From Chiloscyllium plagiosum (lineage: Eukaryota), in contig NC_057749.1 in NCBI RefSeq assembly GCF_004010195.1, forward strand, positions 16,103,831-16,167,830: DNA of 64,000 bases. Direction: 5' to 3'. This document shows, piece after piece, positions 27,787 through 56,500 of this stretch; positions within the stretch are counted from its first letter, which is position 1; each line of letters begins with the position of its first letter. Under the pieces are notes generated by a model, which ran no database searches, was not told the origin of the DNA, and saw only the letters and a program-made list of their open reading frames with translations. Position numbers and translations under genes: made by a program.

Positions 27787-27929
27787 ATGGCCAGCACTTC
27801 CTTTTTAACCAACAGGAGGACCATTGGCACCCTCATGTTACTGGGGGCTGGCTCTCTGGCCAATGGGTTCTTACTCACAAGGGATTATATGAAAGCAAGG
27901 GCAAAACAGAGGAAATTGTATCCTCCCAG
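27787..27929 (+). CDS. ckmt1-like: Coding exon 1: mitochondrial transit peptide and mature N-terminus ([30 protein letters not shown]...RKLYPPS)
   Basis: aaaATGG Kozak context. GAGSLAxGFLL matches the CKMT1 presequence. Donor AG|gtaag at 27930. Acceptor ttcttcctgcag| ends at 27774. Confidence 0.93.
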
Positions 27930-30900
27930 GTAAGAAAAATATTTACATCTATATAGTTAAAAATCATACAACACCAGGTTATAGTCCAACAGGTTTAATT
28001 GGAAGCACACTAGCTTTCGGAGCGACGCTCCTTCATCAGGTGATCATGACTACATCTATATAGTTTTTTTTCGACAACTGAATGATTCAAAGCACTCTAC
28101 ACTAAATGAGGTATTTGGAAATATAGTCACTGTTGTGGTGTAGCGAACACAGCAGCATTAATCACACTCCAGTCAGCAAGGTGCTAAAGAGAAGGCAATT
28201 AGTTTTTGTTATGTTGATTCAGAGATAGGTATTTGCTCGGATACTCTGAAAAACTCACCTGTTCTTTGTCAAAATAGTGCCACAAAACGTTTATATCTAA
28301 GCTGACAGATATAGCCTTGGTTTAACATTGCATGAAGGTGATGCCTCTCCCACAGTGCAGTACCCCTCACTACTGCTCTGACAGTATCATCCTAGTTTTA
28401 AAAAATCACACAACACCAGGTTATAGTCCAGTAAGTTTATTTGGAAGCACTAGCTTTCAGAGCGCTGCTCCTTCATCAGGTGATTGTGGAGAATAAGATT
28501 GTAAGACACAGAATTTATAGCAAAAGTTTACAGTGTGATTTAACTGAAATTATATATTGAAAAAGACCCGGATTGTTTGTTAAGTCTCTCATCTTTTAGA
28601 ATGACCATGTTGGTTTCAGTTCTTTCATATGTAAATCGCAAAACTTTTTTTACAAGTTATATTCTCAAGTGCACTTTAACAATTGGTGTCATGTCAGCCC
28701 AGATAAGGTATTGAAGGTGTTAACTCCTTGTGAGGCTGTCTGTGCCACAATGGTCAGACTGATTGTAATCTAAAAATCAGATTTACAGAATCTTACATGG
28801 ATTCATGCAGTTTTTGAGCAAAGTAAAATGTAATTCTGCAAGTACAAATTCACCCCACAAACTTATATGTGTATGTGTCATGTGGGTGTGGAGGAGTGGG
28901 GGGTGGGGGTGGAGGTGGTTATGAGTGTCTGTGAGAGGGTGTATGTATGTGTGTGAGTATGAATGTAAAGGGGTTTAAGTCTGTGAAAGGATGTGTGTGT
29001 GAGTGTATGAGAGAGGGTGTGTGTGTATGTGTGTGTGTATATAGTGCAATGGAGGTCACCTATGGTGACCGTCTCCAAATCATCCTAGATTATGTGCTCA
29101 AATCCTAGAATCCATAATCCTGGGATTCAGGTGTAAGGACCAAGTTTAGGCCTATAGAACAAAAATGTGGGATTTTGGTCAGTGAAACTTTCTACAGCTA
29201 CTGGCCAGTTCTCCAGGGAACAAAAAACTTTGAATTTCAGAATTACAGATTGAGCACACTGCCAGTTAACATGGAAATAAATATTTGAGATCATTAATAA
29301 TAACATTTATTGCATTGCATGTTGTATTTTGACAATAGTAAAAAAATTACCCCCATTTTTAAAACCTACTTCTTTAACAAAGATATTTCCCACCCATCCT
29401 AACATCACCTTTGACTCATTGTCAAATCTTGCACTGATTACATTCCCATTAAGTCTCCTTTTGTATCACATTAAAGGTGCTATACATTAAAGGTGCTATA
29501 GAAATACAAATATTGTTGTGGGTGTATATTTATTCTACATTATGCTCTCAGTGCAGAATATCCTGATCTCCAAAAGCACAACAGCTACATGGCAACTTAC
29601 CTGACCCCTGATTTATATGCCAAACTTCATGATAAATCTACATCCAGTGGCTGGACACTGGATCAGTGCATTCAGACTGGAGTGGACAATCCTGGAGAGT
29701 CCATAGGAATAATAGCAGGAGATGAAGAATCATATGCAGTAAGTATAACTGTACTGTGAATATGGCCACTGAAAATACACAGAAAATACTCACATAGTGC
29801 ACAACAAAATCTGTCTATTCCAGGGGAGCATATTTGGATAAACTCAGCCTTGTGTTAGCCAGCCATGATTGCTTCACTTACCTTGTTGTTGTTTGCACTC
29901 TTCCTGAAAGCAAAGCTACCCTGAACTATGACCTCCACCTGGGTTTCTGAGGAAACATATGAATATCCAAAGTTGACAAATGGATCATCAAACCTATCCC
30001 ACTCTTCACTGACCAGAACACAAGGCATTTCTTTTCTTCTGTGAGTCATTGGGTGGGCAACTGATCCACAGGAAATTAATTCATAACCAATGTGCATCAA
30101 AATCCTTTAGAAAATATAATTCAGTAGCACCAGAGAGGTGAAGGAGCACAAGCTGCATTAGGCTCTAGATGTAAAAGGGAATAAATTATTGCTGTAAATA
30201 TCATAATACTGTAAGAGTAATGTATAAGAATAATGTTATAGAGTAATATAATATTACAATAGATTATCAGCAGGAGGTTAGACTGGATCAGGTGGACTTT
30301 GTGGAGAAAAACACTACAGCTGAATGGCTCACCTTTATTCTATAACTTCAGGAGCAGGAAAATGTGGATTGGACACAGCTATTTGAAGGGAAGTCCACAT
30401 TTGAGATGTGGGAGGCTTTCAAAGATAGGTTAACGGTAGTGCAGGATAGGCATGTCCCATTGAAGGCAAAGGATAGGAAAGGCAAGATTCGTGAACCGTG
30501 GATGACAGGAGAAATTGTATGACTAGCCAAGAGAAAAAGGGAAGCGTACATAAGGTCTAGGCAGTTAAGAACAGAACGGGCCCTGGGGAATATCAGAAGA
30601 GTAGGACAAGTCTTAAACAAGGAATCAAGCAGGCTAAAAGAGGTCATGAAATAGCTTTAGCGAGCAGAATTAAGGGAAATCCCAAAGCATTTTATTCTTA
30701 TATAAGAAGCAAGCGGGTAACTAGAGAAAGGATTGGTCCACTAAAAGATAATGAAGGAAGGCTGTGTGCCAAGGGTTGGTGATGATTCGCCATGGCAGAT
30801 TCGCTGCCGATGATTAGCCACTGCCAGTTCTCCACCAGCGTTTCTCCACTGGGGTCGTTTGACCTCTGGAGACTATTTGCTACTGGAAATATATATATGT

Positions 30901-33900
30901 AGTGATTGTTTTCCCTCCCGCCTATTCTTTCATACTTCTCAGTCCCCTTTATTTATACAATTACATACTACGTATTGATAACAAAGAGATAAAATAAATA
31001 TCATTTATTGGTTTATATATAAAATTGAGTTACAAACTTTAACCAGAAAAAGGAAATATATTTTAAAAATCTTTATAATGGCAGTAAAATCTCACATTAA
31101 TATTAAACAGTGAAATTTCAGTTCATTTGATAGTTATGCACTATTCCTCTAAGATATTCCAAACAATCTCTTTCACCATATTCAAGAACAACGCAACGCA
31201 AACACTACCTTAACCAATATAATGACAATTTTATATAGTTTAGATATGCTTGTTCTCTAACATTTTAAACTTTGTAAAATTTTTAAAAATCTATTAACAA
31301 AAATAAATGGTTATTAAAACAAGTAAACGCTACCACCAATATTCAAAATATTGCGGTGGCGAATCGTCTTCAGTGGCCAATGGGCGGTGGCTAAGCGTCC
31401 TCGGTGAACAATGGGCAGTGGCTAATCGTCGGCGGCGAATCTGCTGTGGCGAATGGTGCCATCCCGGTGTGCCAAACCTGAGAGAGTGGGTGAGATTCTG
31501 AATGTTTACTTTGTATCAGTGTTACTGAGGAGAGGAACATGATGAATCTTGAGACTAGAGATAGAAGTTTGATTAGTCTGGATCACGTTGGCATAAGTAG
31601 GGAAGATGTGTTAGGTATGCTAGAGGATATTAAGGTGGACAAATCCTCAGGACCGGATGGGATCTATCCCAGGTTGCTGAGGGAGATGAGAGGGGAAATT
31701 GCTGGGGCCCTGACAGACATCTTTGTGGCATCCTTAAATACAGGTGAGGTGCCGGAGGACTGGAAGGTTGCTCATGTTGTCCTCCTGTACAAGAAGGGTA
31801 GTAGGGATATTCCAGGTAACTACAGACCATTGAGCCTGACGTCGGTGGTGGGGAATTGCTGGTGAGGGGACTGAGAGATAGGCTCTATTTATATTTAGAA
31901 AAGAATGAGCTTATCAGTGATAGGCAACATGGTTTTGTGCGGGGGAGTTCATGCCTTACCAACTTAATACAGTTCTTCGAGGAAGTGACCAAGTTGTTAG
32001 ATGAAGGAAGGGCTGTTGATGTCATATACATGGACTTTAGTAAGGCGTTTGATAAGGTTCCCCATTGTAGACTAATGGAGAAAGTGAAGTCACATGGTGT
32101 GCAGGGTGTTCTAGCGAGGTGGATAAAGAACTGGTTGAGCAGCAGGAGATAGGGAGTAGTAGTTGAAAGGAGTTTCTCAAAATGGAGAAAGGTGACCAGT
32201 GGTGTTCCACAGGGGTCAGTGTTGGGGCCACTGTTGTTTGTAATATACATAAATGATCTAGAAGGGGACACTGTTGGTATGATCAGCAAGTTTGCAGATG
32301 ACACAAAGATTGGTGTAGTAGCAGAAAGCATCAGGGACTGTCAGAGAATACAGGTGAATATAGACTGGAGAGTTGGGCGGAAAAGTGGCAGATGGCTTTC
32401 AATCCAGACAAATGTGAGGTGATGCATTTAGGCAAGTCTAATTATAGAGTGAATTATACAATGAATGGAAGAGCCTTGGGAAAAGTTGATGGGCAGAGAG
32501 ATCTGGGAGTGCAGGTCCATTGTACCCTGAAGGTTGCTGCACAGGTGGATAGAGTGCTCAAGAAGACATATAGTATGCTTGCCTTCATTGGACGGGGTAT
32601 TGAGTAAAAGAGCTCGCAAGTCATGTTAAAATTGTACAAGATGTTGGTTCAGCTGCATTCAGAATACTGTGTACAGTTCTGGTCGCCACATTACCAAAAG
32701 GATGTGGACGCTTTGGAGAGGATGCAGAGTAGGTTTACGAGGATATTGCCTGGTATGGAAGGTGCTAGCTATGAAGAGAGGTTGAGTAGATTAGGTTTAT
32801 TTGCACTAGAAAAAAGGAGATTGAGGGGGGACCTGATTGAGGTTTACAAAATCATGAAGGGTATAAAGTTAAAAATCACACAACACCAGGTTATAGTCCA
32901 ACAGGTTTAATTGGAAGCACTAGCTTTCGGAGCGTCACTCCTTCATCAGGTGATTGTGGAGGGCTCGATCGTAACACAGAATTTATAGCAAAAATTTGCA
33001 GTGTGATGTAACTGAAATTATACATTGAAGAATTGATTGTCTGTTAAGCCTTTCATCTGTTAGAATACAGTGACAGTTTCACTTATTTCATTTGTAAATC
33101 ACAAAACCCTTTTTTTTAAAATTGCATTCTCGGGTTAGCTGTTAACAATGGTGATAACTAGACAATATGNNNNNNNNNNNNNNNNNNNNNNNNNNNNNNN
33201 NNNNNNNNNNNNNNNNNNNNNNNNNNNNNNNNNNNNNNNNNNNNNNNNNNNNNNNNNNNNNNNNNNNNNNNNNNNNNNNNNNNNNNNNNNNNNNNNNNNN
33301 NNNNNNNNNNNNNNNNNNNNTGTGTGTGTGTGTGTGTAGGAATATGTGAGAGTGTGTGTGTGTAGTGCAATGGTGATCACCTGTAATGTGACATGAACCC
33401 AAGGTCCCGGTTGAGGCCCTCCCTATGGGTACCGAACTTAGCTATCAGCCTCTGCTCGGCCACTTTCCTCTGCTGCCTGTCCTGAAGTCCACCTTGGACT
33501 TCGTGGTCCAGGACATTCAGCGTCGGACCTTCGGGTGACCATCCTCCAAGGTGGACTTCGGGAAGGAGGATGGACAGGTAGGACAGTCCAAGAGTGTGGT
33601 GCTGAGTTGGAGAGTTGGATCTGGGATGAGGTGGAGGGGAAGGGAGATGAGGAAGCTGGTGAAATTGATCCCGTATAGTTGGAGGGTCCAAAGGTGGAAG
33701 ATGAGGCATTCTTCCTCTCGGCGTCGGGTGGCTAGGCAGTGGAGGAGGCCCAGGACTTGCATGTCCTTGGCGAAGTGGGAGGGTGAGTTAAGTGTTTGGC
33801 CATAGGGCGGTGGGGTTGTTTAGTGCATGTGTCCCAGAGATATTCTCTGAAACGTTCTGGAAGTTGGCATCCTGTCTCTCCAATGTAGAGGAGAAGACAT

Positions 33901-36900
33901 CAAGAACAAGGGACACAGTAGATGATGTATGTGGAGGTACAGGAACGTCTGTCAGATGTGGAAGGATCCTTTGGGGCCTTGGATGAAGGTGAGGGTGAAG
34001 GTGTGGACACAGGTTTTACACCTCTTTCTCCACTGAACATGCTGAGCTCTTTGGTGCTGCTAACACTTGCTAACAATGTCACCTCCAACCATGCAGGTTT
34101 TTGCTGATATATTCGACCCTGTGATTAGAGAAAAGCACAATGGATACGATCCGAAGATCATGAAACATGTCAAAGATTTGGATGCAAGTAAAGTGAGTAG
34201 AAGCCAAACTGCTATATTCGTATTCAGTTTCTGAAAACAGAGCATTGTCTGCAAAGCTAACATTACTGGAAAACAGAACATAGATGACAGAACAGTACAA
34301 CACAGAAACAGGTTCTTCAGCCCACCACAATCCCATCTGCCTGTACATGATCCATATCCCTCTTTAGCCTGCCTGTTCATGTGTCTATCTAAATGCCTCT
34401 TAAACATTGCTATTGTATCTGCTTCTATCACCTCCCATGACAGTGCTTGTCAGGCACCTCTTTGTAAAAATCTTAACTCACACATCTCATTTAAATTTTC
34501 CACCCTCACCTTAAATCTCTGCCCCTTAATATTTGACATTTCTACCCTGGGAAAAAGACTCCAACTATTCATGCCTCTCATAGTTTATATATTTCTAATA
34601 AGTTGGCCCTCAGCCTCTGATGCTGTAGCATAAATAATCCAAGTATGTCCAATCTTTCCTGATAGCTAATACATTCCAATCCAGACAACGCCTGGTAAAC
34701 CCCCTTGCACCTTCTCTGAAGCCTCCACACCCTTCCCATACTGCAGCAACCAGAACTGCACACAACACTCCAAATGTAGCTTAACTAAAGTTTTATACAG
34801 CTGCAAAATGACCTGCCAACTTTTATACTCAAAGTACCAAGTGATGAAGGCAAATATGCCATATGTCATCTTATCCATTTGTGTTGCCACTTGCAGGAAG
34901 CTATGGACTTGCACCCCAAAATAACATGGAAGCAGCCAAGATAGTGGAAGCTTGAAACAGCTTGGCTGCTTAGCCATTGTTCTCAATGTGCTTTGGTAGG
35001 AAGAATAGAGGAGCAGAATATTATTTAAATGGAGAAACACTGCAGAAAGTTGCATAACCAAGGGATTTGGGAATCCTCATGCATAACTCAGAAAAGGCTA
35101 TCATCCAAGATCAGAAGGTAATAGGGAAGGCAATAGAATTTTGGCCTTATTTCAAAGGAAGTGGTACATAAAATAACGAAATCTTGCTAAAGCTATATAA
35201 GGCACTAGTTACACCACAGGATATTGTCAACAGATTTGGTTCCCTCTGTAAAGAAAGATTCACTGGCATTGGAAACAGTCTAGAAAAATTTCACTAGGTT
35301 GATTCTAGGTATTCCTTCTTACAAGAGGTTGAGTAGGTTAGACCTGTAATCATTAGAGCTTAAGAGAATGAGAAGTGGCCTTATTGAAACATATAAAATT
35401 CTTAAGGGGCTTGATAGAATAGATGCAGTGAAGTTGTTCCCCTTGTGGAACAGTCTAGGACCAGAGAGCATAATTTCACAGTAAGTGATCACCCATTTAA
35501 GAGATAAGAAGAATTTCTTCTCGAAGAGAGTAGGTATTCTTTACCATAGAGCGCTGTTGGGGCTCTATGGTGGTTACTAATAAACAAGGCTGAGATAGAC
35601 AGATTTTTAACCATAAGAAAATAAAGGGTTATAAGGAAAATGCAGGACGGTGGAGTTGAGGATTATCAGATCAACCATGATCTTATTGAGAAGTCTGTAC
35701 GTGATTTGTACGAAGGAATCAATTGGACCAACAGTGGAAATAAAAATTTACAGATAAAACATGAAATGCTGACTGTATTTTTTTTTGTTAGGTATTGAGC
35801 AAAGTCAAGGGGAAACAGGTGGGTAATGGCAATTCACTGTATTTTAATCCAGGCTATTGCTTCAGGTTATAGGATCAATGGCAGCTGCAGAATCCAGAAT
35901 AGAAAGTTAGTTTTAGCGATAGCAATCCGACATGTGATCCCAGACCCACTACAACGTGAGTGAATCTTACCTGCCCTCTGGAAGGCAAACCATTCATTTC
36001 AAGGGAAATTACTTGTGAGCGATGAATCTCTAAAAATAATTTTAAAATCTACCCCCCAGAGGCAGACTTTGTAAAGATTCCAGGCTCAACTATATAGAAA
36101 GCCTGTTAATAAACTGGAAATGGTGCAAAAAAGATTTATAAGGGTGTTTCTGAGACTGGAGGGTTTGCGTTATAAGGAGAGGCTGAATGGGCTGGGGCTT
36201 TTTTTCCTGGAACATAGGAGGCTGAGGGGTGACCTTGTAAAGGTTTATTAAAAAATCATGAGGAGCATGGATAAAGGTGTTTTCCCCAGGGTGGGGGAAT
36301 CCAAAACTGGAGGGCATAGGGTTTAAGATGAGAGGGGAAAGATTTAGAAGGGACACGAGGGACGTTTTCACACAGAGGGTGGTGTGTCTATGGAATGAGC
36401 TGCCGGAGGACATGGTACAGGTGAGTACAATTACAACATTTAAAAGACACTTGTATAGGTATGTTGATAGGAAAGGTATAAAATAATCTGAGCCAAATGC
36501 AAGCAGACGGGACTAGTTCAGTTTTGAAAACCTGGTTGACATGGACAAGTTGAGCAGCAGGGGTCTGTTTCCGTGCCAATAACTCTATGACTCTAATATT
36601 GAGGGAATAAAAGGAAAATACAGCAGATGTTGGAGATCTGAAATTAAATCAGAAAGTGTTGATGAAATTCAACAGGTCTGGCAGTGTCTAAGAAGAGAAA
36701 AACACAGTTAACATTTTTGAGTCTGATACAACTTGTCTTGAGCCAACATTAACAACGTTTCTCTCTTCAGTGTTGCTACGAAACTTGTATTTTCCAGCAC
36801 TTCTTGTTTTTATTTCAACACTGAGGAATAGTGTCACAAAAAAACTGGCTCAGTTAAGCACAAACTATGAAGTTTCCTATCTTTGTTTCCTTTACAGATT

Positions 36901-39900
36901 AGGAATGGACAGTTTGATGAAAACTATGTTCTTTCCTCACGTGTCAGGACTGGTCGAAGTATTCGAGGACTCAGCATGCCTCCTGCCTGCACTCGGGCTG
37001 AGAGGAGAGAGGTGGAGAGGGTGACTGTTGAGGCATTAGCTGGATTAAAGGGAGATCTAGCTGGAAAATACTACAGTCTGAGCAGTATGACAGATAAAGA
37101 GCAGCAACAGCTCATTGATGTAAGACAATGAACCACAATTCATCTTGGTTAGAAGGAACTGGCTGGTGCAGTGACCAGTGGCTTCCACACTAGCATTTCC
37201 AATGTGTCCTGAATGTTTCTTATATCTGCAAGGATTCAATATTGTAAGATTTTGTTAAATAATCACCAAGCTCCTGGGACCCTGCAGTATCGCACTGTCC
37301 CTCATTCTATGTGAATTGACAAAAAACATTCAGAACACTGTTGGTCAGTACAGATAGAGCTCTACTCTGTCTAGCTTTGGTCTAACTAACCTTGAAGTAT
37401 TTGATGGAAACAGTTGTTATGACCCACTTAAGAAAGTCTGTTGATTCTCAAGCCCCACTATTTTCAGGGTCACCACAACAATTAATGATTTAATCAAAGT
37501 AGGAAAAGTCCCAAAATATCTGCCTGGAGGAATCAGGATCTGGCACTTAATGCGAACTACAGTTTATTTCAAAAAGATATGTTTTAGCCAAATTATGAGC
37601 TATCAATTCTAACCCCCTTTTTGAACCCCTACACCCACCATACACAGAGTGGGACAAACAAAGAAAAAAAATTGGAATCACAGTTTAATTTTCCTGGTCG
37701 ACAGACGTCAAGAATGCAGTCCTTTTCTCTTCCCAAGTGTTTCTCTTCTGCTAATTCCTTCCTTCCAGATTCTCAGTTATTTGTCACAGACACAGGGGAT
37801 TTACACTTCAATTGTTAATTTCACAGTTAGAGGAAACAACTGACAGTAAATGAGAGGAGAGAATAGTTGACAATCTTAAAGTTTGGGTTATTTGGCTACA
37901 GAGAGATATGGACATATCCTGCTTCTTCCAGTCTTAAAACCTTTGGTCCCTGTGTCAATTCATCCCTAGTCATTGGCTTTAGAAATAGTTATTTTCTACT
38001 TTAGATCACAATCAATTAGTCAGAGAAATAATAAGATGCGGCCTCCACATGTCTCCAATTCCCACACCTGCAGAGGTCATCATGAAGGTCCATCCTCTCC
38101 AACGCGTTCCTTGCCTGAGATATATTGACTCTCAGGTTAAACCACCACTAGTTGTCTCTATGTAATGAGAGAGAAAGACTATGGTCCTTTGGGACTATTG
38201 CAACTTTACCTTGTACCTTTATATATCGTTACACAAAAAAAAATGCAGTCTTTATACATGTGTACAGGAAACTTTACTCTATATCTTAATCTCATGTTGT
38301 ATATCTTTCTATAGGATCACCTCTTGTTTAACAAACCAGCATCACCTTTCCACTTGTCTTCAGGGATGGCCAGGGATTGGCCCGATGCTCGGGGCATTTG
38401 GTAAGTTTGGATTCAGGAAAAAGGAGAGGATTGTGGCCAGGAAGGAAGGTAAACATGAAGTTTGCAATACTGAATTCCAAAACATCTGGAGATCTGAAAG
38501 TAATGCAGGTCAGCAGAGACAAGGTGGTGCAGGAAAATGATCATGCCAAGATGAGTGTTTCTGGGTCTAAATACAAGTGATGTTTTAAAAATAACCAAAC
38601 CATTCTGTTCCCACGTATCTACAGGTATAATAATGAGAAGACTTTCTCAATCTGGATCAATGAGGAGGACCATATTCGAATTATCTCCATGGAAAAAGGC
38701 GGTAACATGAAGAAAGTGTTTGAGAAATTCTGCCGGGGTCTCAAAGAGGTAAACAGTTATAAGAGCAACCGATCCATTAGGATCCTCCCGCCACTGTTGC
38801 ACAATCTGGAGCAGGCTATTCAGCCCAACATATCTGTCCGGGCTGTTTGAGAAAGTTATGCTGTTAGTCCTAATATTGAAGCCCCTCATCCTAACTCCCT
38901 CCTCACACAGCCCTGTAAATTTTCCCCTTTCAAATGTACCTCCAATTTTAACAGAATAAAAATAAGACCTATTTCAGAAGGAAACATTTCTCCACTAGAC
39001 ACCTTACCTCCTCCTCACTTTTACAAGCTGCCTTTTGTTTCAGTCACTTCCTCTTGAAACTTTGATTTATCCTGCTTCTTTGTTACTTTTGATGAAAATT
39101 GTTGAATTTTCCATGTTTTCCTGGCTTTTCTGTGCCTCATTGTTGAGCATTCATTAACATATGGAGTGGTTCAGGTGAATAGTATAGATTACATTTCGGG
39201 GAAAACGAGTGAACAAACTGAAGAGAAAGGAATGGAGAATGTTATCTTGATGGGGTTAGGTGAAGGTGAAAGGGGGCTGGGAAATCTGGTGTAGACAATA
39301 AGCTGCAGCACAAAATCAAATGCCCTGTTTTCATATTGTACACTCAATGTAACTCTATGACTCCATTCATCCTTGCCACTGTTAGAAAAACAGAATACAA
39401 TGCTGAGATTTGAAACAAAAATGTTTTTTCCAGATTGAGAAACTTATCGCTGAGAAAGGCTGGGAGTTTATGTGGAATGAGAGAATTGGCTACATCCTGA
39501 CATGCCCATCAAACCTGGGCACTGGACTCCGAGCTGGGGTACACATCAAACTACCCATGCTCAGCAAGGTACCAGCTCAATCTCATTTTCCAACTGGGCT
39601 TCAATTCTAATGGACATCATTTACTCTCCATTGTACATGACGCTGAAATCAGTTAGTCCTGATACACAAAACATTCGCAAACTACATGCTGAGAATACCA
39701 GTGAAAGGAAAGGGAATAAGGTAGGTCTCTCTCCTTTAGACGATGATAGAGAACTCCTTGTGAAATTAAGTGACAAATTAGGGGGCTGAGATTCCACAGG
39801 GATTCCTGCTCACAAGAAACAAAACAGAGGCTGCTTTAACATGGAACAGGACTAAACAGAACCTGACATGAACAGCCCACAGGTTAGCTGGTATAAGAAA

Positions 39901-42688
39901 TGGTAATGATCACAAAGACATTACAAGAGTTTGACTGGGGTAAGGGCTGGGGCTCATTGAAGAGGACAGTGCAGAAGGAGCTTTACTGTGCATTGTATCT
40001 CATGCTGTCCCTGCCCTGGGAGTGTAAAAGGAGCTTTACTCTGTCTCTAACCCAGCGCTGTCCCTGTTTAATGAAGACAGTAGAGAGGGAGTTTTACTAT
40101 GTCCAAGTTGTCTTGGGAGTTATTGAAATAAAAATTTTTCTTACCTGGTAGTGAAGCCTCTTGCTGTAACGAGCAGAAAACCACACAGGGAAAAAAAACC
40201 TCTCAAAATTAGAAGAGCCGATGGTATATGTTGACTAGTAGAGTAGAAGGACTGCCATAGATGCAATTACATTACACATACCACAGTATAAAGGGTGTAT
40301 GGTAGGAGTGACCAATGCACAGTGCTTGTGGACACCATTTCCTGTCTTCTCTTTGAGGATACACTCCATCATGCCGTGTGGCACTATCACCTTTATAACT
40401 GGGGTGGAAGAGGTCTAGTAACTCAAGACTGGGCATCTATGAGACTGTGGGCGATCAGCAAAAACAGGACTGCACTCAAACATAATCTGTAACCTCATAG
40501 TCCAGCAGATCCCTCACTGTATCATTACTATCAAGCTACAGGACCAAGTTTGTTCCATTAAAAATGTGAAAGGAGTTGCCGGATGTTCTCATGGAATACA
40601 GGGAGAACTAGCCATTTGGATACAGAACTGGCTCAAAGATTGAAGACAGAGGGTGGTGGTGGAGGGTTGTTTTTCAGACTGGAGGACTGTGACCAGTGCA
40701 GTGCCATAAGGAACGGTGCTGGGTCCTCTACTTTTTGTCAGTTACATAAATGATTTGGATGCGAGCATAAGAGGTACAGTTAGTAAGTTTGCAGATGACA
40801 CCAAAATTGGAGGTGTAGTGGACAGCGAAGAGGGTTACCTCAGATTACAACAGGATCTGGACCAGATGGGCCAATAGGCTGAGAAGTGGCAGATGGAGTT
40901 TAATTCAGATAAATGCGAGGTGCTGCATTTTGATAAATCAAACCTTAGTAGGACTTATACACTTAATGGTAGGGTCCTAGGGAATGTTGCTGAACAAATA
41001 GACACTGGAGTGCAGGTTCCTAGCTCCTTGAAAGTGAAGTCGCAGGTAGATGGGATAGTGAAGAAGGNNNNNNNNNNNNNNNNNNNNNNNNNNNNNNNNN
41101 NNNNNNNNNNNNNNNNNNNNNNNNNNNNNNNNNNNNNNNNNNNNNNTTATGAGAGGCATGGATAGGATAAATAGACAAATTCTTTTCCCTGGGGTGGGGG
41201 AGTCCAGAACTGGAGGGCACAGGTTTAGGGTGAGAGGGAAAAGATATAAAAGAGACCTAAGGGGCAACTTTTTCACGCAGAGGGTGGTACATGTATGGAA
41301 TAAGCTGCCAGAGGATGTGGTGGAGTCTGGTACAATTGCAACATTTAAGAGGCATTTTGGATGGGTAATGAATAGGAAGGGTTTGGAGGGATATGGGCCG
41401 TGTGTTGGCAGGTGGGACTAGATTGGGTTGGAATATCTGGTCGGCATGGACGGGTTGGACCGAAGGGTCTGTTTCCATGCTATACAACTCTATGACTCTA
41501 TACTATCGGGCATAGCCAAAAATGAGGTGTCAATCTGATGGTGCCACAAAGAGGGCTGTTTCGCCTTTCAAACAGCATAAGCAGCAAGTGATAAACAAAG
41601 CTAACAAATTCCTCAATCAACAAGTCAGATCTAAGCTCAGCAATTCTGCCACATCCATTTGCAAATAGTGGACAATTAAACAATTCAATAGAGGAGTAGG
41701 TTCCACAAATATTCCCATTCTTAACAATGGGGGACCCCAGCATTTCATTGCAAAGGATAAGGCTGAGGCAGCCACAACAATCTTAACTTAGTCTTTGGCC
41801 AATGCAATTCACTCCACTTGATATCAAGGAAAGGCAGAAGACACTGAATACTGCAAAGGGTGCTGACAATATTTCAATATTAGTACTGAAGATTTACTCT
41901 CCAAAATGTGGCATACCCTGTAGCCATACTGTTCTAATACAACTGCAATACCGGTATTAATCTAACAATGTTGGACTATAACCTGGTGTTGTGTGATTTT
42001 TAATTTGGATGTTAACAGACAGCTTTTTGTTTGATAGAAGCTCCCTGTTATCTTTAATTTCTGATTCAGGATCCTCGCTTCCCGAAGATCCTGGAGAACC
42101 TGCGACTGCAGAAACGAGGGACAGGGGGAGAGGACACCGAAGCTGTGGACAGCGTGTTTGATATCTCAAACCTGGACCGTCTGGGGAAATCTGAGGTGAG
42201 TTACCACAGTTTATTATACAGTGGTTATGTAATGGGGAAGGCACAAGGGGGCAGTAGGGGAGAGAAAAGTGTACATGAATAGGTTTCCTTGAAGGGATCT
42301 CGAGATAACAAAGGGAGAATTTGTGGGAGGGGTCAGGATTCATTGGGGAAGTGAAGGGGGGAATACAGGGAAATTGGAACAGAAGAAGGGGAGGATATCA
42401 GTTCAGGGATAGATTTCCTTTGGGAAGTGAAGGAAGGATCAAGCATGGCAATTGGACGGGAAAAGAGGCATGGAGAGGGGATTATCTTTCCAAAACAAAA
42501 ATAGGATTCTCCCTCCCCCTTTTGATAATGTAAAAGTCTAATCTTGAATGTCTTGTTCCTTTCTTCAGGTGGAGCTTGTTCAATTAGTGATTGATGGAGT
42601 CAACTATTTAATTGAGTGTGAGAAGAGACTCCAGCAAAGTCACGATATCCAAATCCCACCCGCCCTACGCATAAACAGTTACCATTGA
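27787..42688 (+). CDS. ckmt1-like: Mitochondrial creatine kinase U-type-like phosphagen kinase, 9 coding exons, 412 aa, divergent substrate pocket
   Basis: Hand-spliced exons 27787-27929, 29552-29738, 34097-34192, 36898-37119, 38315-38400, 38625-38748, 39434-39568, 42070-42195, 42569-42688 total 1239 nt in one open frame with GT-AG introns. U-type diagnostic strings: [50 protein letters not shown]. Confidence 0.96.
27959..28050 (-). mobile_element. 92-bp Penelope terminal fragment with hammerhead core, in intron 1
   Basis: 15-bp TSD tacatctatatagtt (27944-27958 and 28051-28065). Minus strand reads cac-CTGATGA-aGGAGC-gtc-GCTCC-GAAA-GCTA-gtg. Confidence 0.85.
28396..29078 (-). mobile_element. 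Penelope 3' UTR fragment with hammerhead core and TG microsatellite
   Basis: 10-bp TSD atcatcctag (28386-28395 and 29079-29088), same terminus as 27959. Confidence 0.85.
29552..29738 (+). CDS. ckmt1-like: Coding exon 2 ([19 protein letters not shown]...[20 protein letters not shown])
   Basis: ctctcag| acceptor and |gtaagt donor. 187 nt, 12 nt shorter than the equivalent human CKMT1 segment. Confidence 0.95.
30350..32865 (+). mobile_element. CR1 LINE ORF2 fragment, interrupted by a DNA transposon
   Basis: ORFs 31539..32910 with [40 protein letters not shown] and FADD. Confidence 0.93.
30773..31466 (-). mobile_element. Non-autonomous Mutator/MULE-like DNA transposon
   Basis: 9-bp TSD gtgtgccaa (30764-30772 and 31467-31475), ~55-bp imperfect TIRs built of ttcgcc/ggcgaa repeats, internal remnant [21 protein letters not shown] (31118-31195, minus). 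Confidence 0.8.
32866..33559 (-). mobile_element. Penelope 3' end with hammerhead core (32921-32949), spans a gap
   Basis: [33 protein letters not shown]-terminus, same terminus family as 28396. Confidence 0.85.
33560..34026 (-). repeat. Near-identical copy of the Penelope segment starting at 25871
   Basis: Long stretches read base-for-base identical with only scattered differences. Confidence 0.85.
34097..34192 (+). CDS. ckmt1-like: Coding exon 3 ([32 protein letters not shown])
   Basis: catgcag| acceptor with upstream gctaac branch-like motifs, |gtgagt donor, 96 nt. Confidence 0.95.
34280..35690. mobile_element. Two decayed CR1 fragments (minus 34280-34920, plus 34990-35690)
   Basis: [17 protein letters not shown] on minus, degenerate CR1 C-terminus and tail on plus. 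Confidence 0.8.
36110..36596 (+). mobile_element. CR1 3' end
   Basis: [14 protein letters not shown], tail ctctatgactct. Confidence 0.88.
36898..37119 (+). CDS. ckmt1-like: Coding exon 4 ([24 protein letters not shown]...EQQQLID)
   Basis: tttacag| and |gtaag, 222 nt, seen in ORF 36883..37131. Confidence 0.97.
38315..38400 (+). CDS. ckmt1-like: Coding exon 5 ([29 protein letters not shown])
   Basis: ttctatag| and |gtaagt, 86 nt, [13 protein letters not shown] motif. Confidence 0.96.
38625..38748 (+). CDS. ckmt1-like: Coding exon 6 ([41 protein letters not shown])
   Basis: tctacag| and |gtaaac, 124 nt, catalytic NEED motif at 38659-38670. Confidence 0.96.
39434..39568 (+). CDS. ckmt1-like: Coding exon 7 ([45 protein letters not shown])
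   Basis: ttttttccag| and |gtacc, 135 nt, CPSNLGT signature with reactive Cys at 39503-39505. Confidence 0.97.
40585..41500 (+). mobile_element. CR1 LINE 3' portion (spans a gap)
   Basis: [13 protein letters not shown] and [15 protein letters not shown], tail ctctatgactct. Confidence 0.92.
42070..42195 (+). CDS. ckmt1-like: Coding exon 8 ([42 protein letters not shown])
   Basis: ctgattcag| and |gtgagt, 126 nt. Confidence 0.96.
42569..42688 (+). CDS. ckmt1-like: Coding exon 9 ([39 protein letters not shown])
   Basis: ctttcttcag| acceptor, TGA at 42686-42688. Confidence 0.95.
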
Positions 42689-42706: not shown

Positions 42707-42708
42707 CA

Positions 42709-43880
42709 TAGAGTCATAGTCATACAGATGTACAGCACGGAAACAGACTCTTTGGTCCAACTCGTCCATGCCAATCACATATCCTAACCTAGTCTAGTCC
42801 CATTTGCCAGGTCTTGGCCCATACCCTATTCATAAACCCTTCCAGATGCCTTTAAATGTTGCAATTGTATCAGCCTCCACCACTTCCTCTGGTAGCTTAT
42901 TCCATACACACACCACCCTCTGTGTGAAAATGTTGTCCTTTAGGTCCCTTTTATATCTTTCGCCTCTCTCCCTAAACCTATGCCCTCTAGTTCTGGACTC
43001 CCCGACCCCAGGGAAAAGACTTTGACTATTTACCCTATCCATGCCCCTCAATATTTTATAAACCTCTATAAGGTCCCCCCTCAACCTTCGACACTCCAGG
43101 GAAAACAGCCCCAGCCTATTCAGTCTCTCCCTATAGCTCAAATGCTCCAACCCTGGCAACATTCTTGTAAATCCGTTCTGAATCCTTTCAAGTTTCACAA
43201 CATCCTTTCAATAGGAAGGAGACCAGAATTGCACGCAGTATTCCAAAAGTGGCCTAACCAATGTCCTGTACAGCCGCAACATGACCTCCCAACTCCTGTA
43301 CTCAATACTCTGACCAATAAAGGAAAGCATACCAAACACCTTCTTCACTATCCTATCTATCTGCGACTCTACTTTCAAGGAGCTATGAACCTCCACTCCA
43401 AGGTCTCTTTGTTCAACAACACTCTCTAGGACCTTATCATTGAGTGTAAAAGTCTTGCTAGGATTTGCTTTTCCAAAATGCAGCACCTTGCATTTATCTG
43501 AATTAAACTCCATCTGCCACTTCTCAGCCCATTGGTCCATCTGATCAAGAACCCATTGTAATCTGAGGTAACCTTCTTTGCAATCCACTACACCTCCAAT
43601 TTTGATATAATCTGCAAACTTACTAACTATACCTCCTATGTTCACATCCAAACTGTTTATGTAAAAGACAAAAAGTAGTGACCCAGCACTGATCCTTGTG
43701 GCATTCCACTGGTCACAGGCCTCCAGTCTGAAAAACAACTCTCCACCTTCTGCCTTAAAGCCAGTTTTGTATCCAAATGGCTAGTTGTCCCTGTGTTCCA
43801 TGAGATTTAACCTTGCTAACCAGTGTCCTATGGAAAACCTTGTAGAACACCTTACTGAAGTCCATATAGATCACGTCCAC
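42709..43880 (-). mobile_element. CR1 LINE 3' portion
   Basis: ORFs 42830..43198 and 43208..43738. Confidence 0.93.
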
Positions 43881-46629: not shown

Positions 46630-47159
46630 AAAAGTGAAGATTGCAGATGCTGGAGATTAGAGTCGAGTGTGGTGCTGGAAAAGCACAGCTGGTCAGGCAG
46701 CATCCAAGGAGCAGGAGAAATGACGTTTCAGGCAAAAGCCCTTCATCAGGAATGAGGCTGTGAGCTGAGGGGCTGGTGAGATAAATGGGAGGGGAGGTAG
46801 GGCTGGGGGCGAAGGCAGCTGAGAGTGCGAGAGGTAGATGAAGGTGGGGGGTAATGGTGATAGGTCAGAGAGGAGGGTGGAGCAGATAGGTCAGAAGGAA
46901 GATGGACAGGTAGGACAGGTCATGAGGGCAGGGCTGGGTTGGAAAGTTGGAACTGGGATAAGGTGGGGGAAGGGGAAATGAGAAAACTGATGAAATCCAC
47001 ATTGACGCTGTGGGGTTGAAAGCTCCTGAGGTGGAAGATGAGGCGTTTTTCCTCTCTGCGTCAGGTGGTTAGGGAGTGGCAATGGAGGAGTCCCAGGATC
47101 TGATTCTCATGCTCCTCAGATGCTGCCTGACATTTCCAGCACCACATTCTCAACTTTAT
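46630..47159 (-). mobile_element. Penelope 3' end with hammerhead-like core (46722-46749)
   Basis: Same family as 25635-26790. Confidence 0.8.
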
Positions 47160-47659
47160 NNNNNNNNNNNNNNNNNNNNNNNNNNNNNNNNNNNNNNNNN
47201 NNNNNNNNNNNNNNNNNNNNNNNNNNNNNNNNNNNNNNNNNNNNNNNNNNNNNNNNNNNNNNNNNNNNNNNNNNNNNNNNNNNNNNNNNNNNNNNNNNNN
47301 NNNNNNNNNNNNNNNNNNNNNNNNNNNNNNNNNNNNNNNNNNNNNNNNNNNNNNNNNNNNNNNNNNNNNNNNNNNNNNNNNNNNNNNNNNNNNNNNNNNN
47401 NNNNNNNNNNNNNNNNNNNNNNNNNNNNNNNNNNNNNNNNNNNNNNNNNNNNNNNNNNNNNNNNNNNNNNNNNNNNNNNNNNNNNNNNNNNNNNNNNNNN
47501 NNNNNNNNNNNNNNNNNNNNNNNNNNNNNNNNNNNNNNNNNNNNNNNNNNNNNNNNNNNNNNNNNNNNNNNNNNNNNNNNNNNNNNNNNNNNNNNNNNNN
47601 NNNNNNNNNNNNNNNNNNNNNNNNNNNNNNNNNNNNNNNNNNNNNNNNNNNNNNNNNNN

Positions 47660-47946
47660 GTCCCAACTACTGTCACAAACCTGGCATCAGCCCACAGTCC
47701 CAACTACAGTCACAAATCTGACAAATTCCCACATTCCCAACTAAAGTCACAAACCTGGCATCAGCCCAGAGTTCCAAATACAGTCACAAACCTGGCATCA
47801 TCCCAGACTCCCAACTACAGTCACAAACCTGGCATCATCCCACAGTCCCAAATACAATCACAAACCTGGCCTCACTCCACCATCCCAACTACAGTCACAA
47901 ACCTGGCATCAGCCCAGAATCCCAAATATAGTCACAAACCTGGCAT
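47660..47946. repeat. ~38-bp tandem minisatellite (cagtcacaaacctggcatcagcccacagtcccaacta), 7-8 visible units next to a gap
   Basis: Direct reading of repeated units. Confidence 0.92.
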
Positions 47947-47949
47947 CTC

Positions 47950-48205
47950 AGTGGAGGTGGTGCCTCGTGGTATTCTCTCTGACTATTTATCCAAGAAATG
48001 CAGCTTATGTTCTGTGGACTTGGTTTCAAATCCTGCCATGGCAGCTGGATTCGGTAAAACAAAATCTAGAATTACGAATCTACTAATGACCATGAAACCA
48101 TTGTCAATTGTCAAACACACCCATCTGATTCACTAATGGCCTTCAGGAAAGGAAACTGCCATCCTCACCTGGTCTGGCCTACGTGTGACTCCAGACCCAC
48201 AGCAG
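47950..48205 (+). mobile_element. DeuSINE/SacSINE1-like SINE
   Basis: tRNA-like head followed by the Deu-domain-like cactaatg-ccttcaggaaaggaaactgccatcctcacctggtctggcctac-tgtgactccagacccac. Confidence 0.7.
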
Positions 48206-51539: not shown

Positions 51540-53500
51540 TAGAACATGGAACAGTACAGCACAGTACAGGCTTTTTGGGCCTCAATGTTGTATCAGCCTT
51601 TTATCCCACTCTAAGATCAGACTAACCTATATACCCTTCATTTTACTATCTTCCATGTGCCTATCCAAGATTTGTTTAAATGTCCCTAATGTATCTGACT
51701 CTATTACCACTGCTGGCAGTGCATTCCAGGCACCCACCACTCTCTGTGTAAAGAACCTACCTCTGACATCGCCCCTAAACCTTCCTCCAAACACCTTAAA
51801 ATTATGCCTCCTCGTGATAGCCATATTCACCTGGGAAAAAGTCTCTGGCTATCCGTTCTACCAATGCCTCTCATCATCTTGGACACCTTGATCAAATTGC
51901 CTCTCATCCTTCTTTGCTGCAATGAGAAAAGCCCTAGCTCCCTCAACCTTTCTTCATAAGACATGCCCTCCAGTCCAGGCAACATCCTGGTAAATCCCCT
52001 CTGCACTCTCTCTAAAGCTTCCACATCTTTCCTATAATGACGTGACCAGAACTGAACACCATATTCCAAGTGTGGTCTAACTTGGGCTTTATAGAGCTGC
52101 AGCATAACCTTGTGGCTCTTAAACTCAAACACCCTGTTAATGAAAACCAACATACCGTACTCCTTCTTAACAACCCTACCAACTTGGGTGGCAACTTTGA
52201 GGGATCTACGTACATGGACTCCAAGATCCCTCTGTTCCTCCACACTGCCAAGAATCCTGCCTTTAACTCTGTATTCTGCATTCAAATTCAACCTTCCAAA
52301 GTGAATCACTTCACACTTTTCCAGGTTGAACTCCATCTGCCTCTTCTCAGCCAAAGTTAAAAATCACACAACACCAGGTTATAGTCCAACAGGTTTAATT
52401 GGAAGCCCACTATCTTTCACTGTTGGACTATAACCTGGTGTTGTGTGATTTTTAACTTTGTACACCCCAGTCCAACACCGGCATCTCCAAATCATTCTCA
52501 GCCCAGTTCCGCATCCTGTCAATGTCCCAATGAAACTTACAACAGCTGTCCACACTATCCGCAACTCCACCAACTTTTGTATCATTGGCAAACTAACCCA
52601 TCCTTCTACTTCCTCATCCAAGTCATTTATAAAAGTCACAAGGAGCAAAGGTCCCAAGAACAGATCCCTGCAGAACACCACTGGTGACTGAGATCCAGGC
52701 TGAATACTTTCCATATACCACCAACCTCTGTCTTCTATGGGTGAGCCAATTCTGTATCCAGACAGCCAGATTTCCCTGTATCCTATGCCTCCTTACTTTC
52801 TGAATGAGCCTATCATGGGAAACCTTATAAAATACCTCGCTAAAATCCAGGTACACCACATCACTGCTCTACCTTCATCAATGTTTATTGTCACATCCTT
52901 ATAGAATTCAATAAGGTTTGTGAGGCATGGCCTACCCCTCACAAAGCCATGCTGACTATCTCTAATCAAACTATGGTTTTCCAAGTAATCATAAATCCTG
53001 TCTCTCAGAATCCTCTCCAATATTTTGCCCACCACTGATGTAAGACTGACTGGTCTGTTATTCCCAAGATTATCCCTATTCCCTTTCTTGAACAAGGGAA
53101 TAACATTTACCACCCTCCAATCATCTGGCACTACTCTAATAGACAGTGAGAACGCAAAGGCACAGCAATCTCTTCCCTCATTTTTTGCATTATCCTTGGG
53201 TATATCCCATCCGGCCCAGGTTATTTATCTATTCTTAGGTTTTTCAAAGTTTTCAGCGCATACTCCTTCCTAACATCAACCTGTTTGAGCATATCAATCG
53301 GTTTCATGCTGTCCTCAGAAACGTCAGGTCCCTCTCAGTAGTGAATATTGATGCAAAGTATTCATTAAGGTCTTCCCCTTCCTCCTCCTACTCCAGGCAC
53401 AAGTTCCCTCCATTCTCCCTGATCAGCCCTACCCTCACTCTGGCCATCCTCTTGTTCCTCACTTAAGGGTAGAAAGCATTAGGGTTTTTGTTAATCCTTG
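51540..53500 (-). mobile_element. CR1 LINE ORF2 with a nested Penelope fold-back insert (52353-52494)
   Basis: ORFs 51627..53131 carry CR1 RT motifs. The insert is flanked by TSD ttctcagcc (52344-52352 and 52495-52503). Confidence 0.92.
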
Positions 53501-56500
53501 ATTCTGAGTAATTCAAGATGGAGGATGGGAAAAATGTCTGGGTGTAACAGGCTGCTCTTTTTTTGAGGTATTTTAGGTGCTGGATGTGATTTCCTCGAAT
53601 TCCAGGAGCAGCAATTCCTGTTTTATATGCTGTTGCATTATTTTGGAACTTTGGAGAAAAAATCAGTCAAATCAACAGCACTTTTAAAATGGAGAGGAAC
53701 AGACAAATGCAGCACCTGGTCTGTGCAGAGAGACACCCACACTGCTAACTGACACAGCAGTGAACCTGCGCAGTTACTGCCTTTGCTGTTTGAATTCTTG
53801 CATCGCTGGATATCGAAGTGTGTTTGGGAAAATTAACCAACAGTGAAATTCACAACTGACCTTGGAGGAACCTGTTTAGGAGAGGTCACAGCACAGAAAC
53901 ACATAAGTAAATATTTTTAAGGGTGGCCTTGCTGTAAGTCTGCTGTATTGAGTATATGGGTGCTTTCTTGATTATATATTTTATTGAGATCTGTCTTTTG
54001 ATTAAACCTAAAAATATAAACCATAAGTGTGAAGTTAGCCTGGAGTATTGTTTTGTAGAGGAATAACACGGCGCTATTTTTTGGGTCTGCAGATTTGAAG
54101 AAGCAAAAATGGCCCTTAGTAGAGTGATGTGCTCTTCTTGTCGGATGTGGAAGTTCAGTGAGAGTTTACGTGGCACTGAGAATTATATCTGCAATAAATG
54201 CCATTGGTTGCAAATCCTATCAAATCGAATGGATCGGATGGAGCAACATTCAGAAGCAATGAAGAATTTACAAGTGCAAGGGGACGTGATGGATGGCAGT
54301 TATAGGAAGGGAAAAGAGTCGCCAATACAGTCACATAGATGAGTTAACTCCAGGAAAGTTAAGAAATTTAGGCAGGAAGTGCAGGAGCCTTCTGTGGCTA
54401 TCTCCATTTCAAATAAGTATGCTGTTTCGGAAAATGTAGGGGATATGGATTTTCAGGGGAACGTAGCACAAGCAGCTAAGTTTCTGGTATCAAGACAGAC
54501 TCTAACGTAATGAGGGGTATGTTGGGTTCCAAGAAATCAATCATATTAGGAGACCCTCTAGTCCGAGGCACAGACAGATGATTCTGTGGCCAGCAGCAAA
54601 ATATCAGAATGGTGTGTTGCCTCCCTAGTGCCAGGATCAAAGATGTCTCAGAGAGGGTGCAGAATGTTCTCAAAGGGGAGAGGGACCAGCAGGAGGTCAT
54701 TGTACACATTGGAATTAATGACGTAGGAAGGAAAAAGAATGAGATCTGAAGGGAGATTATAGAAAGTTAGGCAGGAATTTAAAAAGGAAATCATCAAGAG
54801 TAGTACTATCTGGATTACTCCTGGTGCTACGGGCTAGTAAGGATAGGAATAGGAGGACAGAGCAGATGAATGCATAGCTGAGGAGCTGGTGTATGGGAGA
54901 AGGATTCACATTTTTGGATCATTGGAATCTCTTCTGGGGTAGAAGTGACCTGTACAAGAAGGACAGATTGCTCCTGAATTGGAAGGGGGCTAGTATATTG
55001 GCTGGGAGCTGCCCAGGAGGATTTAAACTAGTAAGGTGGGGGGGGGGGGGGGGGGTGGGATCCAGGGAGATAGTGAGAAAAGAGATCAATCTGAGACTGG
55101 TACAGTTGAGAAAATAAGTGAGTCAAACAGTCAGGGCAGACAGGAACAAAGCAGAGAGCAAGGCAGGATGGATAAATTCAACTGAATTTATTTCAATGCA
55201 AGGGGCCTAACAGGGAAGGCAGATGAGCATGGTTAGGAACATGGGACTGGGATATCATAGCAATTACAGAAACATGGCTCAGGGATGGCTTAATGTTCCA
55301 GGATACAAATGCTACAGGAAGGACAGAAAGGGAGGCAAGAAAGGAGGGGGAAATGGGTTTTTGATAAGGGATAGCATTACAGCTGTACTGAGGGAGGACA
55401 TTCCCGGAAATACATCCAGGGACGTTATTTGGGTAGAACTGAGAAATAAGGAATGGATGATCACCTTATTGGGATTGTATAAGAGATCCCTTAATAGGCA
55501 GCGGGAAATTGAGAAACAAATTTGTGAAGAGATTTCAGTTATCTATAAGAATAATAGAGTGGTTATGGTAGGGGATTTCAACTTTCCAGACATAGAAAGG
55601 AACTGCCATAGTGTTAAGGGTTTGATGGAGAGGAATTTGTTAAGTGTGTACAAGAAAATTTTCTGATTCAGTATGTGGATGTACCTACTAGAGAAGGTGC
55701 AAAACTTGACCTACTCTTGGGAAATAAGGCAGGGCAGGTGACTGAGGTGTCAGTGGGGGAGCACTTTGTGGCCAGCGACCATAAGTCTATTAGATTTAAA
55801 ATAATGATGGAAAAGGATAGACCAGATCTAAAGAAGTTCTAAATCGGAGGAAGGCTAATTTTGATGGTATTAGGCAAGAACTTTCAAAAGCTGATTGGGG
55901 GCAGATGTTTGCAGGTAAAGGGACGGTTGTAAAATGGGAAGCCTTCAGAAATGAGATAACTAGAATCCAGAGAAAGTATATTTCTGTTAGGGTGGAAGGG
56001 AAGGCTGGTAGGTATTGGGAATGCTGGATGACTAAAGAAATTGAGGGTTTGGTTATGAAAAAGAAGGAAGCATATGTCAGGTACAAACAGGATGTTTCAA
56101 GTGAATCTTTAGAAGAGTATAAAATCAGTAGGAGTATACTTAAGAGGGAAATCAGGAGGGCAAATAGGGGACATGAGATAGCTGTGGCTAATAGAGTTAA
56201 GGAGAATCCAAAGACTTTTTACAAATACATTAAGGACAAAAGGTTAACTAGGGAGAGAGTGGGGCTCCTTAAAGATCAGCAAGGGGGCTTTTGTGTGGAG
56301 CCACAGGAGATGGGGGAGATACTAAATAAGTATTTTGCATCGGTGTTTACTGTGTAAAAGGACATGGAAGATATAGAAAGTAGGGGAAAAGATGGTGACA
56401 TCTTAAAAAATGTCCATACCTACAGAGGAGGAAGTGCTGGATGTCTTGAAATGCATAAAAGTGGATAAATCCCCAGGACTTGATCAGGTGTACCTGAGAA

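Follow-up and report, generated by a model that had tools for sequence, protein, structure and literature searches.

The 64,000-nucleotide stretch of DNA analysed here (the window; G000:C40:16103831-16167830), from the shark Chiloscyllium plagiosum, carries on its forward strand a gene at 27787-42688 that is a tandem paralogue of ubiquitous-type mitochondrial creatine kinase, and not an ordinary mitochondrial creatine kinase gene. This paralogue is labelled PAR below, and the canonical copy of mitochondrial creatine kinase (CK) is labelled CAN. As judged from alignments, three elements that wall the substrate pocket are rebuilt in PAR, namely the C-terminal loop, the N-terminal loop around Ile69 and the segment at residue 201, and the machinery for phosphoryl transfer and nucleotide binding is whole. 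The reading that we favour, with a probability of roughly 55%, is that PAR is an active mitochondrial phosphagen kinase whose specificity has moved away from creatine. The narrower proposal, that a mitochondrial phosphagen kinase of elasmobranchs acts on a non-creatine guanidino compound (e.g., arginine or guanidinoacetate) by way of CK loops remodelled in the manner of the sea-cucumber arginine kinase and the annelid kinases, is tentative and falls somewhat short of even odds.

The glutamate codon and the gene that carries it

The initial annotation had drawn attention to a glutamate that takes the place of Val325 in the flexible active-site loop of CK. The reading of the letters bears this out: 42115-42144 is CGA GGG ACA GGG GGA GAG GAC ACC GAA GCT, in frame in exon 8, with GAG (Glu) at 42130-42132. 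This Glu is residue 352 of the database protein P0400, and in a gapless alignment it faces Val325 of the solved CKs (RGTGGVDTAA in 7u5i, 1qk1, 1crk and 9b04). The 42-residue peptide of exon 8 matches the solved mitochondrial CKs (MtCKs) at E = 2e-17.

The gene model, obtained with tblastn and a splice-site search, has 9 exons, introns that are all GT-AG and an open reading frame (ORF) of 412 codons without a break. The spliced product is identical, letter for letter, to P0400 (412 amino acids), the public name of which is 'creatine kinase U-type, mitochondrial-like'. The ATP:guanidino phosphotransferase domains PF02807 and PF00217 are listed in precomputed Pfam results for P0010, the PAR protein of Hemiscyllium, and for other PAR proteins, and the N-terminal ~40 residues of PAR align with canonical presequences. 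A public isoform, P0403, reads through the donor of exon 8 (42196 onward), ends in ...GKSEWFYIS and is without the last exon. The parts of the gene, in window coordinates, are as follows.

27787-27929, forward strand: exon 1, with the start codon and an N-terminal presequence-like region (tblastn and splice model; donor GT).
29552-29738, forward strand: exon 2, with the N-terminal flexible (Ile69 or 'GS') loop; bounded by AG..GT and covered by a spliced contig of run X1 with 0 differing letters.
29688-29720, forward strand: remodelled N-terminal specificity loop, 4 residues shorter than the invariant NPGHPFIKTVGMVAG (translation and alignments).
34097-34192, forward strand: exon 3, 96 nt, the length of the unlisted gap in the X1 contig.
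36898-37119, forward strand: exon 4, with Arg130 and Arg132; its protein is identical to that of the canonical copy, with a synonymous divergence (dS) of 0.
38315-38400, forward strand: exon 5, with SPFHL at 38342-38356; the otherwise invariant Leu201 is Phe here (38348-38350; residues numbered after the 1vrp alignment).
38625-38748, forward strand: exon 6, with NEEDH; Glu231, Glu232, Asp233 and Arg236 are kept.
39434-39568, forward strand: exon 7; Cys283, Ser285, Asn286, Arg292 and His296 are kept.
42070-42195, forward strand: exon 8, with the C-terminal flexible loop; it is not converted, its DNA being only 84% identical to that of the canonical exon.
42130-42132, forward strand: Glu codon GAG at the Val325 position; the canonical copy has GTG, and A>T at 42131 is found only in canonical-type contigs.
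42569-42688, forward strand: exon 9 and stop codon, encoding a divergent C-terminal tail.

The change had been taken for a point change in the shark's one CK; instead, it belongs to a separate paralogue with the canonical gene adjoining. A search of the shark's own genome places a second MtCK gene ~31 kb downstream on the same strand (C40:16177717-16207957, beyond the window), and this canonical copy carries the standard NPGHPFIKTVGMVAG and RGTGGVDTAA. A retrocopy of PAR was not seen in this search, which matched the gene exon by exon only. The CK matches in the genome, a lower bound because the best candidates were scored, comprise two C40 genes and single genes on C41, C10 and C9, and a separate sarcomeric-type MtCK was not seen among these listed matches. 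The last exons of the CK genes on C41 and C10 suggest cytosolic enzymes; both genes have GGVDT, one of them GGVDTEA. The C9 gene (~39655113-39674302; L015, outside the window) is a very divergent CK-like gene with ~47% identity in the region of the last exon, and its C-terminal loop reads VGAVNASA, in which Val is kept, Asp326 is replaced by Asn and a 2-residue gap follows.

At least one sample contains PAR transcripts with the splicing that the gene model predicts. Exons 1, 2 and 4 are united, with 0 differing letters, in a contig of 952 nt from run X1, the unlisted gap of which (96 nt) equals exon 3 in length; a second contig, of 475 nt, links exons 7 and 8 over a GT..AG intron, with the joint at 39566>42068. 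At 42131, a contig of depth 9.52 in the same run keeps the A of the Glu codon, and a contig of depth 5.2 that has canonical differences reads T.

Pocket residues across orthologues and the phosphagen kinase family

Three protein searches and a cluster look-up gave 9 PAR sequences from 8 species of sharks and batoids, namely two species of Chiloscyllium, Hemiscyllium, Heterodontus (two copies), Pristis, Amblyraja, Leucoraja and Rhinoraja. These were set in a 32-row alignment together with 23 other MtCKs, ranging from chimaera to mammals. The two Heterodontus proteins, P0020 and P0404, are encoded on one contig; both have the Glu and GQPFVKSIG, and their main difference is the C-terminal tail.

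At the site aligned with Val325, Glu is found in 9/9 PAR rows and Val in all 23 of the other MtCKs. In this survey, chosen beforehand as the comparison on which the initial annotation was to stand or fall, Val was found in no PAR protein. The Glu goes beyond chance or sequencing error because of this division between the two sets, the Val in the tandem copy of the same genome and the independent X1 contig that keeps A at 42131.

The initial annotation had singled out Val325 to Glu as the change and had missed larger ones, namely a 4-residue deletion in the Ile69 loop, L201F, V72I and M74I. The residues H66, I69, V72, M74, L201 and V325 are all present in 23/23 non-PAR MtCKs. V72I, M74I and L201F are each present in 9/9 PAR rows and in 0/23 non-PAR rows, and T71S is present in 9/9 PAR rows, with Ile at the same place in one canonical ray. 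In PAR of the hemiscylliids (n = 3 species), the N-terminal loop (N-loop) is 4 residues shorter than in CK, with His66 and Ile69 deleted, and the window gene at 29688-29720 is shorter by these 4 residues than the full-length invariant CK loop GHPFIKTVGMVAG. The N-loop of Heterodontus PAR reads GQPFVKSIG, a length as in CK, and that of batoid PAR reads GHEHSFIKSIG, 2 residues longer than in CK. The C-terminal loops (C-loops) of batoid PAR are RGTRGENTPD in Pristis, RGPRGENTVD in Amblyraja and Leucoraja, and RGPQGENTPD in Rhinoraja, where D326N and G323R/Q are added to the Glu.

According to a passage in PMC12387690, Ile69 and Val325 make up the specificity pocket of CK, which agrees with the role that had been assigned to Val325. 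This seat for the N-methyl group of creatine is not retained in PAR: Val325 is Glu in 9/9 sequences, and Ile69, which the window gene has lost, is replaced by V or T in 3 others. In its pocket, the window gene departs from CK in the strict sense (EC 2.7.3.2), with Glu for Val325, Ile69 deleted and a short N-loop. The reactive Cys (CPSNLGT), the catalytic Glu (NEEDH) and the nucleotide-binding arginines that mark the family are present in 9/9 PAR sequences, and 14 residues in all (R130, R132, E231, E232, D233, R236, C283, S285, N286, R292, H296, R320, D335 and R341) are kept in each of them. The TE that follows the Glu had also been read as resembling arginine kinase (AK); it is not diagnostic, since DTEA occurs in a cytosolic CK of the same genome and in the sarcomeric MtCK of Heterocephalus, and the position is P or V in 6/9 PAR sequences.

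A wider family survey was made by searching 1.84 billion representative proteins with P0010, and 297 domains from 148 listed representatives were profile-aligned. Fifty-six of these domains were well formed, that is, they kept R320, G324, C283 and E232 and had an N-loop. The site aligned with Val325 was Glu in 36 of the 56, Val in 12 and another residue in 8, in keeping with the earlier claim that phosphagen kinases other than CK have Glu there, as 3ju5 and 4wo8 do. Val was accompanied by a 19-residue loop and Leu201 in 11/12 domains, and Glu by a 14-15-residue loop in 32/36. The state of the window gene (Glu, a 15-residue loop and Phe) is the modal class, with 17/56 domains, although the match of Phe201 to AKs hinges on where a hidden Markov model (HMM) places a one-residue gap and is given less weight. 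The named members of this class are arginine kinase, arginine kinase-like protein and taurocyamine kinase-like protein.

Among solved structures, the C-loop peptide of Pristis PAR is matched best by AK 3ju5 (RGTSGEFTES) and then by taurocyamine kinase (TK) 4wo8 (RGTHGEHTES), a second loop of which reads RGLYGEHTES at the aligned site. The N-loop peptide of the window gene aligns 40-to-40, gapless, with AKs 4rf6 and 3ju5 and with lombricine kinase (LK) 3jpz, whereas CKs need 44 residues for its 40, and glycocyamine kinase (3l2d/3l2e) has 44 for 39. Of the features expected of an AK, the Glu is present throughout PAR and the short N-loop is present in hemiscylliid PAR only, not in Heterodontus or the batoids; GEH with AK-type loop residues, which is read in the AK-named and AK-like domains of the survey, is not found in PAR. 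An N-loop as long as that of CK, expected of a glycocyamine kinase, is absent from the window gene, and Heterodontus PAR has this length. An AlphaFold2 model of P0400 (31-row alignment) had a mean predicted local distance difference test (pLDDT) score of 65.7, with both loops, the 201 segment and the Cys283 region below 50, and was left unused.

In comparison with known enzymes, PAR shares with ubiquitous-type MtCK (1qk1, 7u5i, 9b04 and 1crk) the fold family, 9 exons, a presequence-like N-terminus and the catalytic and nucleotide-binding residues, and it is 80-81% identical to canonical MtCK proteins of sharks. It differs from them in Val325 to Glu, Leu201 to Phe, V72I, M74I, T71S, the remodelled Ile69 loop and the divergent C-terminal tail. 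AK 3ju5 (370 amino acids), a sea-cucumber enzyme, belongs to the CK lineage and uses a substrate other than creatine; like PAR, it has Glu at the aligned site, and its N-loop length equals that of the window gene. It is unlike PAR in being invertebrate and cytoplasmic and in reading GEF. The AK of Stichopus is described as 'related to the CK gene' in a passage of PMC11492440. Typical AKs (1m15, 1bg0 and 4rf6) resemble the window gene in the Glu, the N-loop length and the Phe in the 201 column, but their identity to PAR is only ~40-45%, their Glu is followed by His and their loop is made of different residues (DSGVGIYA). By the trees, the likeness of PAR to typical AKs is convergent and not due to descent. 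The taurocyamine, lombricine and glycocyamine kinases of annelids and trematodes (4wo8, 3jpz and 3l2d) are all invertebrate enzymes; TK has Glu at the site and LK has the N-loop length of the window gene, whereas the N-loop of glycocyamine kinase is longer. Loop indels with a few substitutions are described in a passage of PMC3836730 as retargeting phosphagen kinases to new guanidino substrates.

Constraint, gene conversion and duplication history

By its substitutions, PAR has been several-fold faster in protein change than CAN and is yet under constraint. In the exons that have not been converted, dS between PAR and CAN is 0.66 and nonsynonymous divergence (dN) is 0.135, which gives an omega of 0.20. 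Polarised with sequences of bony vertebrates and chimaera, the replacements number 39 (+11 probable) in PAR and 3 (+6) in CAN. P0400 and P0010, which represent two hemiscylliid genera, differ at 15/412 residues, and exons 2, 5 and 8, which together encode 134 residues, contain 0 of these differences (hypergeometric P = 0.0024 for these exons against the rest, a post-hoc test).

Two tracts of the gene are nearly identical to the tandem canonical gene.

36852-37322, forward strand: gene-conversion tract 1, in which 471 bp share 99.4% identity with the tandem canonical gene and reach into the flanking introns (blastn).
39141-39901, forward strand: gene-conversion tract 2, in which 762 bp share 96.6% identity with the canonical gene and likewise reach into the introns (blastn).

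DNA identity between PAR and CAN is 71-84% in exons 1, 2, 3, 5, 6, 8 and 9. The two near-identical tracts, at exons 4 and 7, are the result of recent gene conversion, from which the pocket exons were spared. The gene is thereby a mosaic, and whole-protein phylogeny was rejected as misleading when considered as a test of orthology. The trees place PAR inside the chondrichthyan MtCK group. In the tree of exons 2, 5 and 8, a PAR clade is supported at 100/99, and at 91/75 after the columns of both loops are removed. The same exons reject the topology in which the sharks are placed together, with indicative p values of the approximately unbiased test (p-AU) of 0.014 and, without the loops, 0.048; on the whole protein, the PAR clade is not rejected (p-AU 0.18, likewise indicative).

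The most likely history is a single duplication before the split of sharks and batoids, followed by repeated gene conversion except in the pocket exons, which were kept distinct by selection. Independent duplications with convergence are possible and weigh against the reading proposed here; either history requires selection on the pocket. As far as the present evidence goes, PAR seems to be confined to elasmobranchs.

As regards the surroundings, no host genes were recognised near PAR among the 78/132 stop-free stretches of >=85 amino acids that lie outside the gene, a Pfam scan of which gave only domains of the long interspersed nuclear element (LINE) type and hence nothing on synteny. LINE-type fragments are found at 24814-25155, 52796-53224 (reverse strand), 55211-55663, 56694-57137, 59153-59575 (reverse strand) and 61622-62110, and the domains in those flanking the gene are reverse transcriptase, endonuclease and GDSL/OSK-like. 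A 37-bp tandem repeat of 7.8 copies with 83% match occupies 47660-47947, within a region (47042-48133) where several frames lack stops. Inside the gene and just after it, interspersed repeats of either orientation occur at 41147-41501, 42707-43173, 27941-28486 and 32862-32969; they are also found in the introns of the tandem copy and draw very deep contig cover in all four runs.

Proposed function and competing explanations

PAR would be imported into mitochondria like its canonical neighbour, given that its N-terminus aligns with canonical presequences, and would transfer a phosphoryl group between ATP and a guanidino compound. The replacement of Val by Glu would take away the hydrophobic seat of the N-methyl group of creatine and offer a carboxylate to an N-H group, as in AK and TK, and the loop changes may alter how the remainder of the substrate is enclosed. 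The preference of PAR would thus be shifted to a guanidino compound without an N-methyl group. In this shark, the loop of AK or LK length may indicate a substrate bulkier than glycocyamine (e.g., arginine); the variation from lineage to lineage is compatible with a different substrate in each or with a less important loop. The initial annotation had also proposed a substrate that lacks the N-methyl group, and this part remains reasonable in view of the conservation of Glu, the Glu of AK and TK and the pocket; the glycocyamine that it brought to mind is disfavoured in this species by the shortened loop. An engineered V325E human muscle CK reportedly prefers glycocyamine (Novak et al., Biochemistry, 2004). 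That enzyme has the same substitution in an otherwise intact CK pocket, whereas PAR has further pocket changes.

Several observations weigh against a shift of specificity in an active enzyme, besides independent duplications. The activity and substrate of PAR are predicted from its sequence. PAR contigs were present in only 1/4 of the runs examined and at low depth; X6, X4 and X8 had canonical-type contigs alone on exon 8. The PAR loops read GED or GEN and are without the His that follows Glu in the GEH of AK and TK loops, and the Phe201 match carries the alignment uncertainty described above. The length of the N-loop is uneven among the orthologues (-4 in hemiscylliids, 0 in Heterodontus and +2 in batoids), which fits lineage-specific substrates and equally a loop without a role. 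No PAR-type protein was among the listed hits for Stegostoma, Rhincodon, Cetorhinus, Hemitrygon, Narcine and Callorhinchus; absence is not proven by this, but the patchy distribution over only 8 species suggests repeated loss and hence dispensability. In the whole-protein tree, PAR falls beside the canonical copies of the lineage to which it belongs; in the exons other than 2, 5 and 8, the PAR clade is rejected (p-AU 0.00015) and the sharks come together at 97/94. All the p-AU values are indicative only, because the topology groups were chosen with a tree already in view.

That PAR is still a CK, whose pocket changes tune kinetics, pH response or regulation or mark a tissue isoform in the manner of sarcomeric and ubiquitous MtCK, is unlikely, with a small but real chance. 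The catalytic residues are all kept, the genome shows no separate sarcomeric MtCK within the lower bound of its matches, so that PAR could fill this role, and creatine is the substrate of the sole vertebrate phosphagen system recognised in the relevant passages of two reviews (PMC11492440 and PMC6429109). However, both sarcomeric and ubiquitous forms are included in the 23 MtCKs that keep H66, I69, V72, M74, L201 and V325, and PAR alters exactly these residues; Ile69 and His66 are deleted in the species of the window, and Val goes with the CK-type loop in 11 of the 12 well-formed domains that have it. The chance is small, too, that PAR is a glycocyamine (guanidinoacetate) kinase, in which the loss of the N-methyl pocket by Val325 to Glu favours the precursor of creatine. 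Guanidinoacetate is made by a mitochondrial amidinotransferase. The Glu is fixed in PAR, and the N-loop of Heterodontus PAR has the length found in CK and glycocyamine kinase, but the window N-loop is 4 residues shorter and equals that of AK and LK, against the 44 residues for 39 in 3l2d/3l2e. In passages of PMC3836730 and PMC11492440, the size of deletions in the GS region is correlated with the size of the substrate, larger substrates going with such deletions, which argues against glycocyamine in this shark.

PAR might also be a weak or inactive subunit that co-assembles with the canonical enzyme or binds nucleotide in some other role while its substrate loops drift, and we regard this as quite improbable. 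The variation of loop length by lineage, D326N in batoids, the patchy distribution among elasmobranchs and the faster change of PAR (39 (+11) against 3 (+6)) are what drifting loops would give. On the other hand, Cys283, Glu232 and the guanidino-facing residues are kept in 9/9 sequences, every PAR sequence has the same four derived residues in its pocket, conservation within hemiscylliids is higher in the pocket exons (0 of the 15 differences) than elsewhere in the gene, and gene conversion has not erased these exons. It is very improbable that PAR is a decaying duplicate with a neutral or deleterious Glu: its faster protein evolution and its absence from the database hits of several elasmobranchs would fit decay, but its ORFs are intact in 8 species, omega is 0.20, splicing and transcription are correct and Glu is found in 9/9. 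A pseudogene was rejected on the same grounds of intact ORFs, omega of 0.20, spliced transcripts and conserved Glu.

A description of this paralogue was not found in literature searches, some of them aimed at it; most subscription journals lie outside those searches, so this is weak evidence that the paralogue is unpublished. Echinoderms and annelids are known to have CK-derived kinases whose loops have been retargeted; no such kinase is known from a vertebrate. Section 2.1.1 of PMC6429109 and the Background of PMC11492440 recognise, for vertebrates, no phosphagen kinase besides CK and no phosphagen besides phosphocreatine. A vertebrate gene in which otherwise invariant residues of the creatine pocket are changed and the catalytic core is kept makes this statement directly testable. 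If PAR does work on a guanidino compound other than creatine, it would represent the first phosphagen system of a vertebrate that is not based on creatine, and it would have stayed distinct from the canonical gene beside it for hundreds of millions of years, with gene conversion going on between the two. The gene can also be regarded as nature's own repeat of a specificity switch of the CK-to-AK type. Moreover, PAR and CAN are a clear case in which tandem duplicates exchange sequence by gene conversion while selection protects the exons that define the proposed new function.

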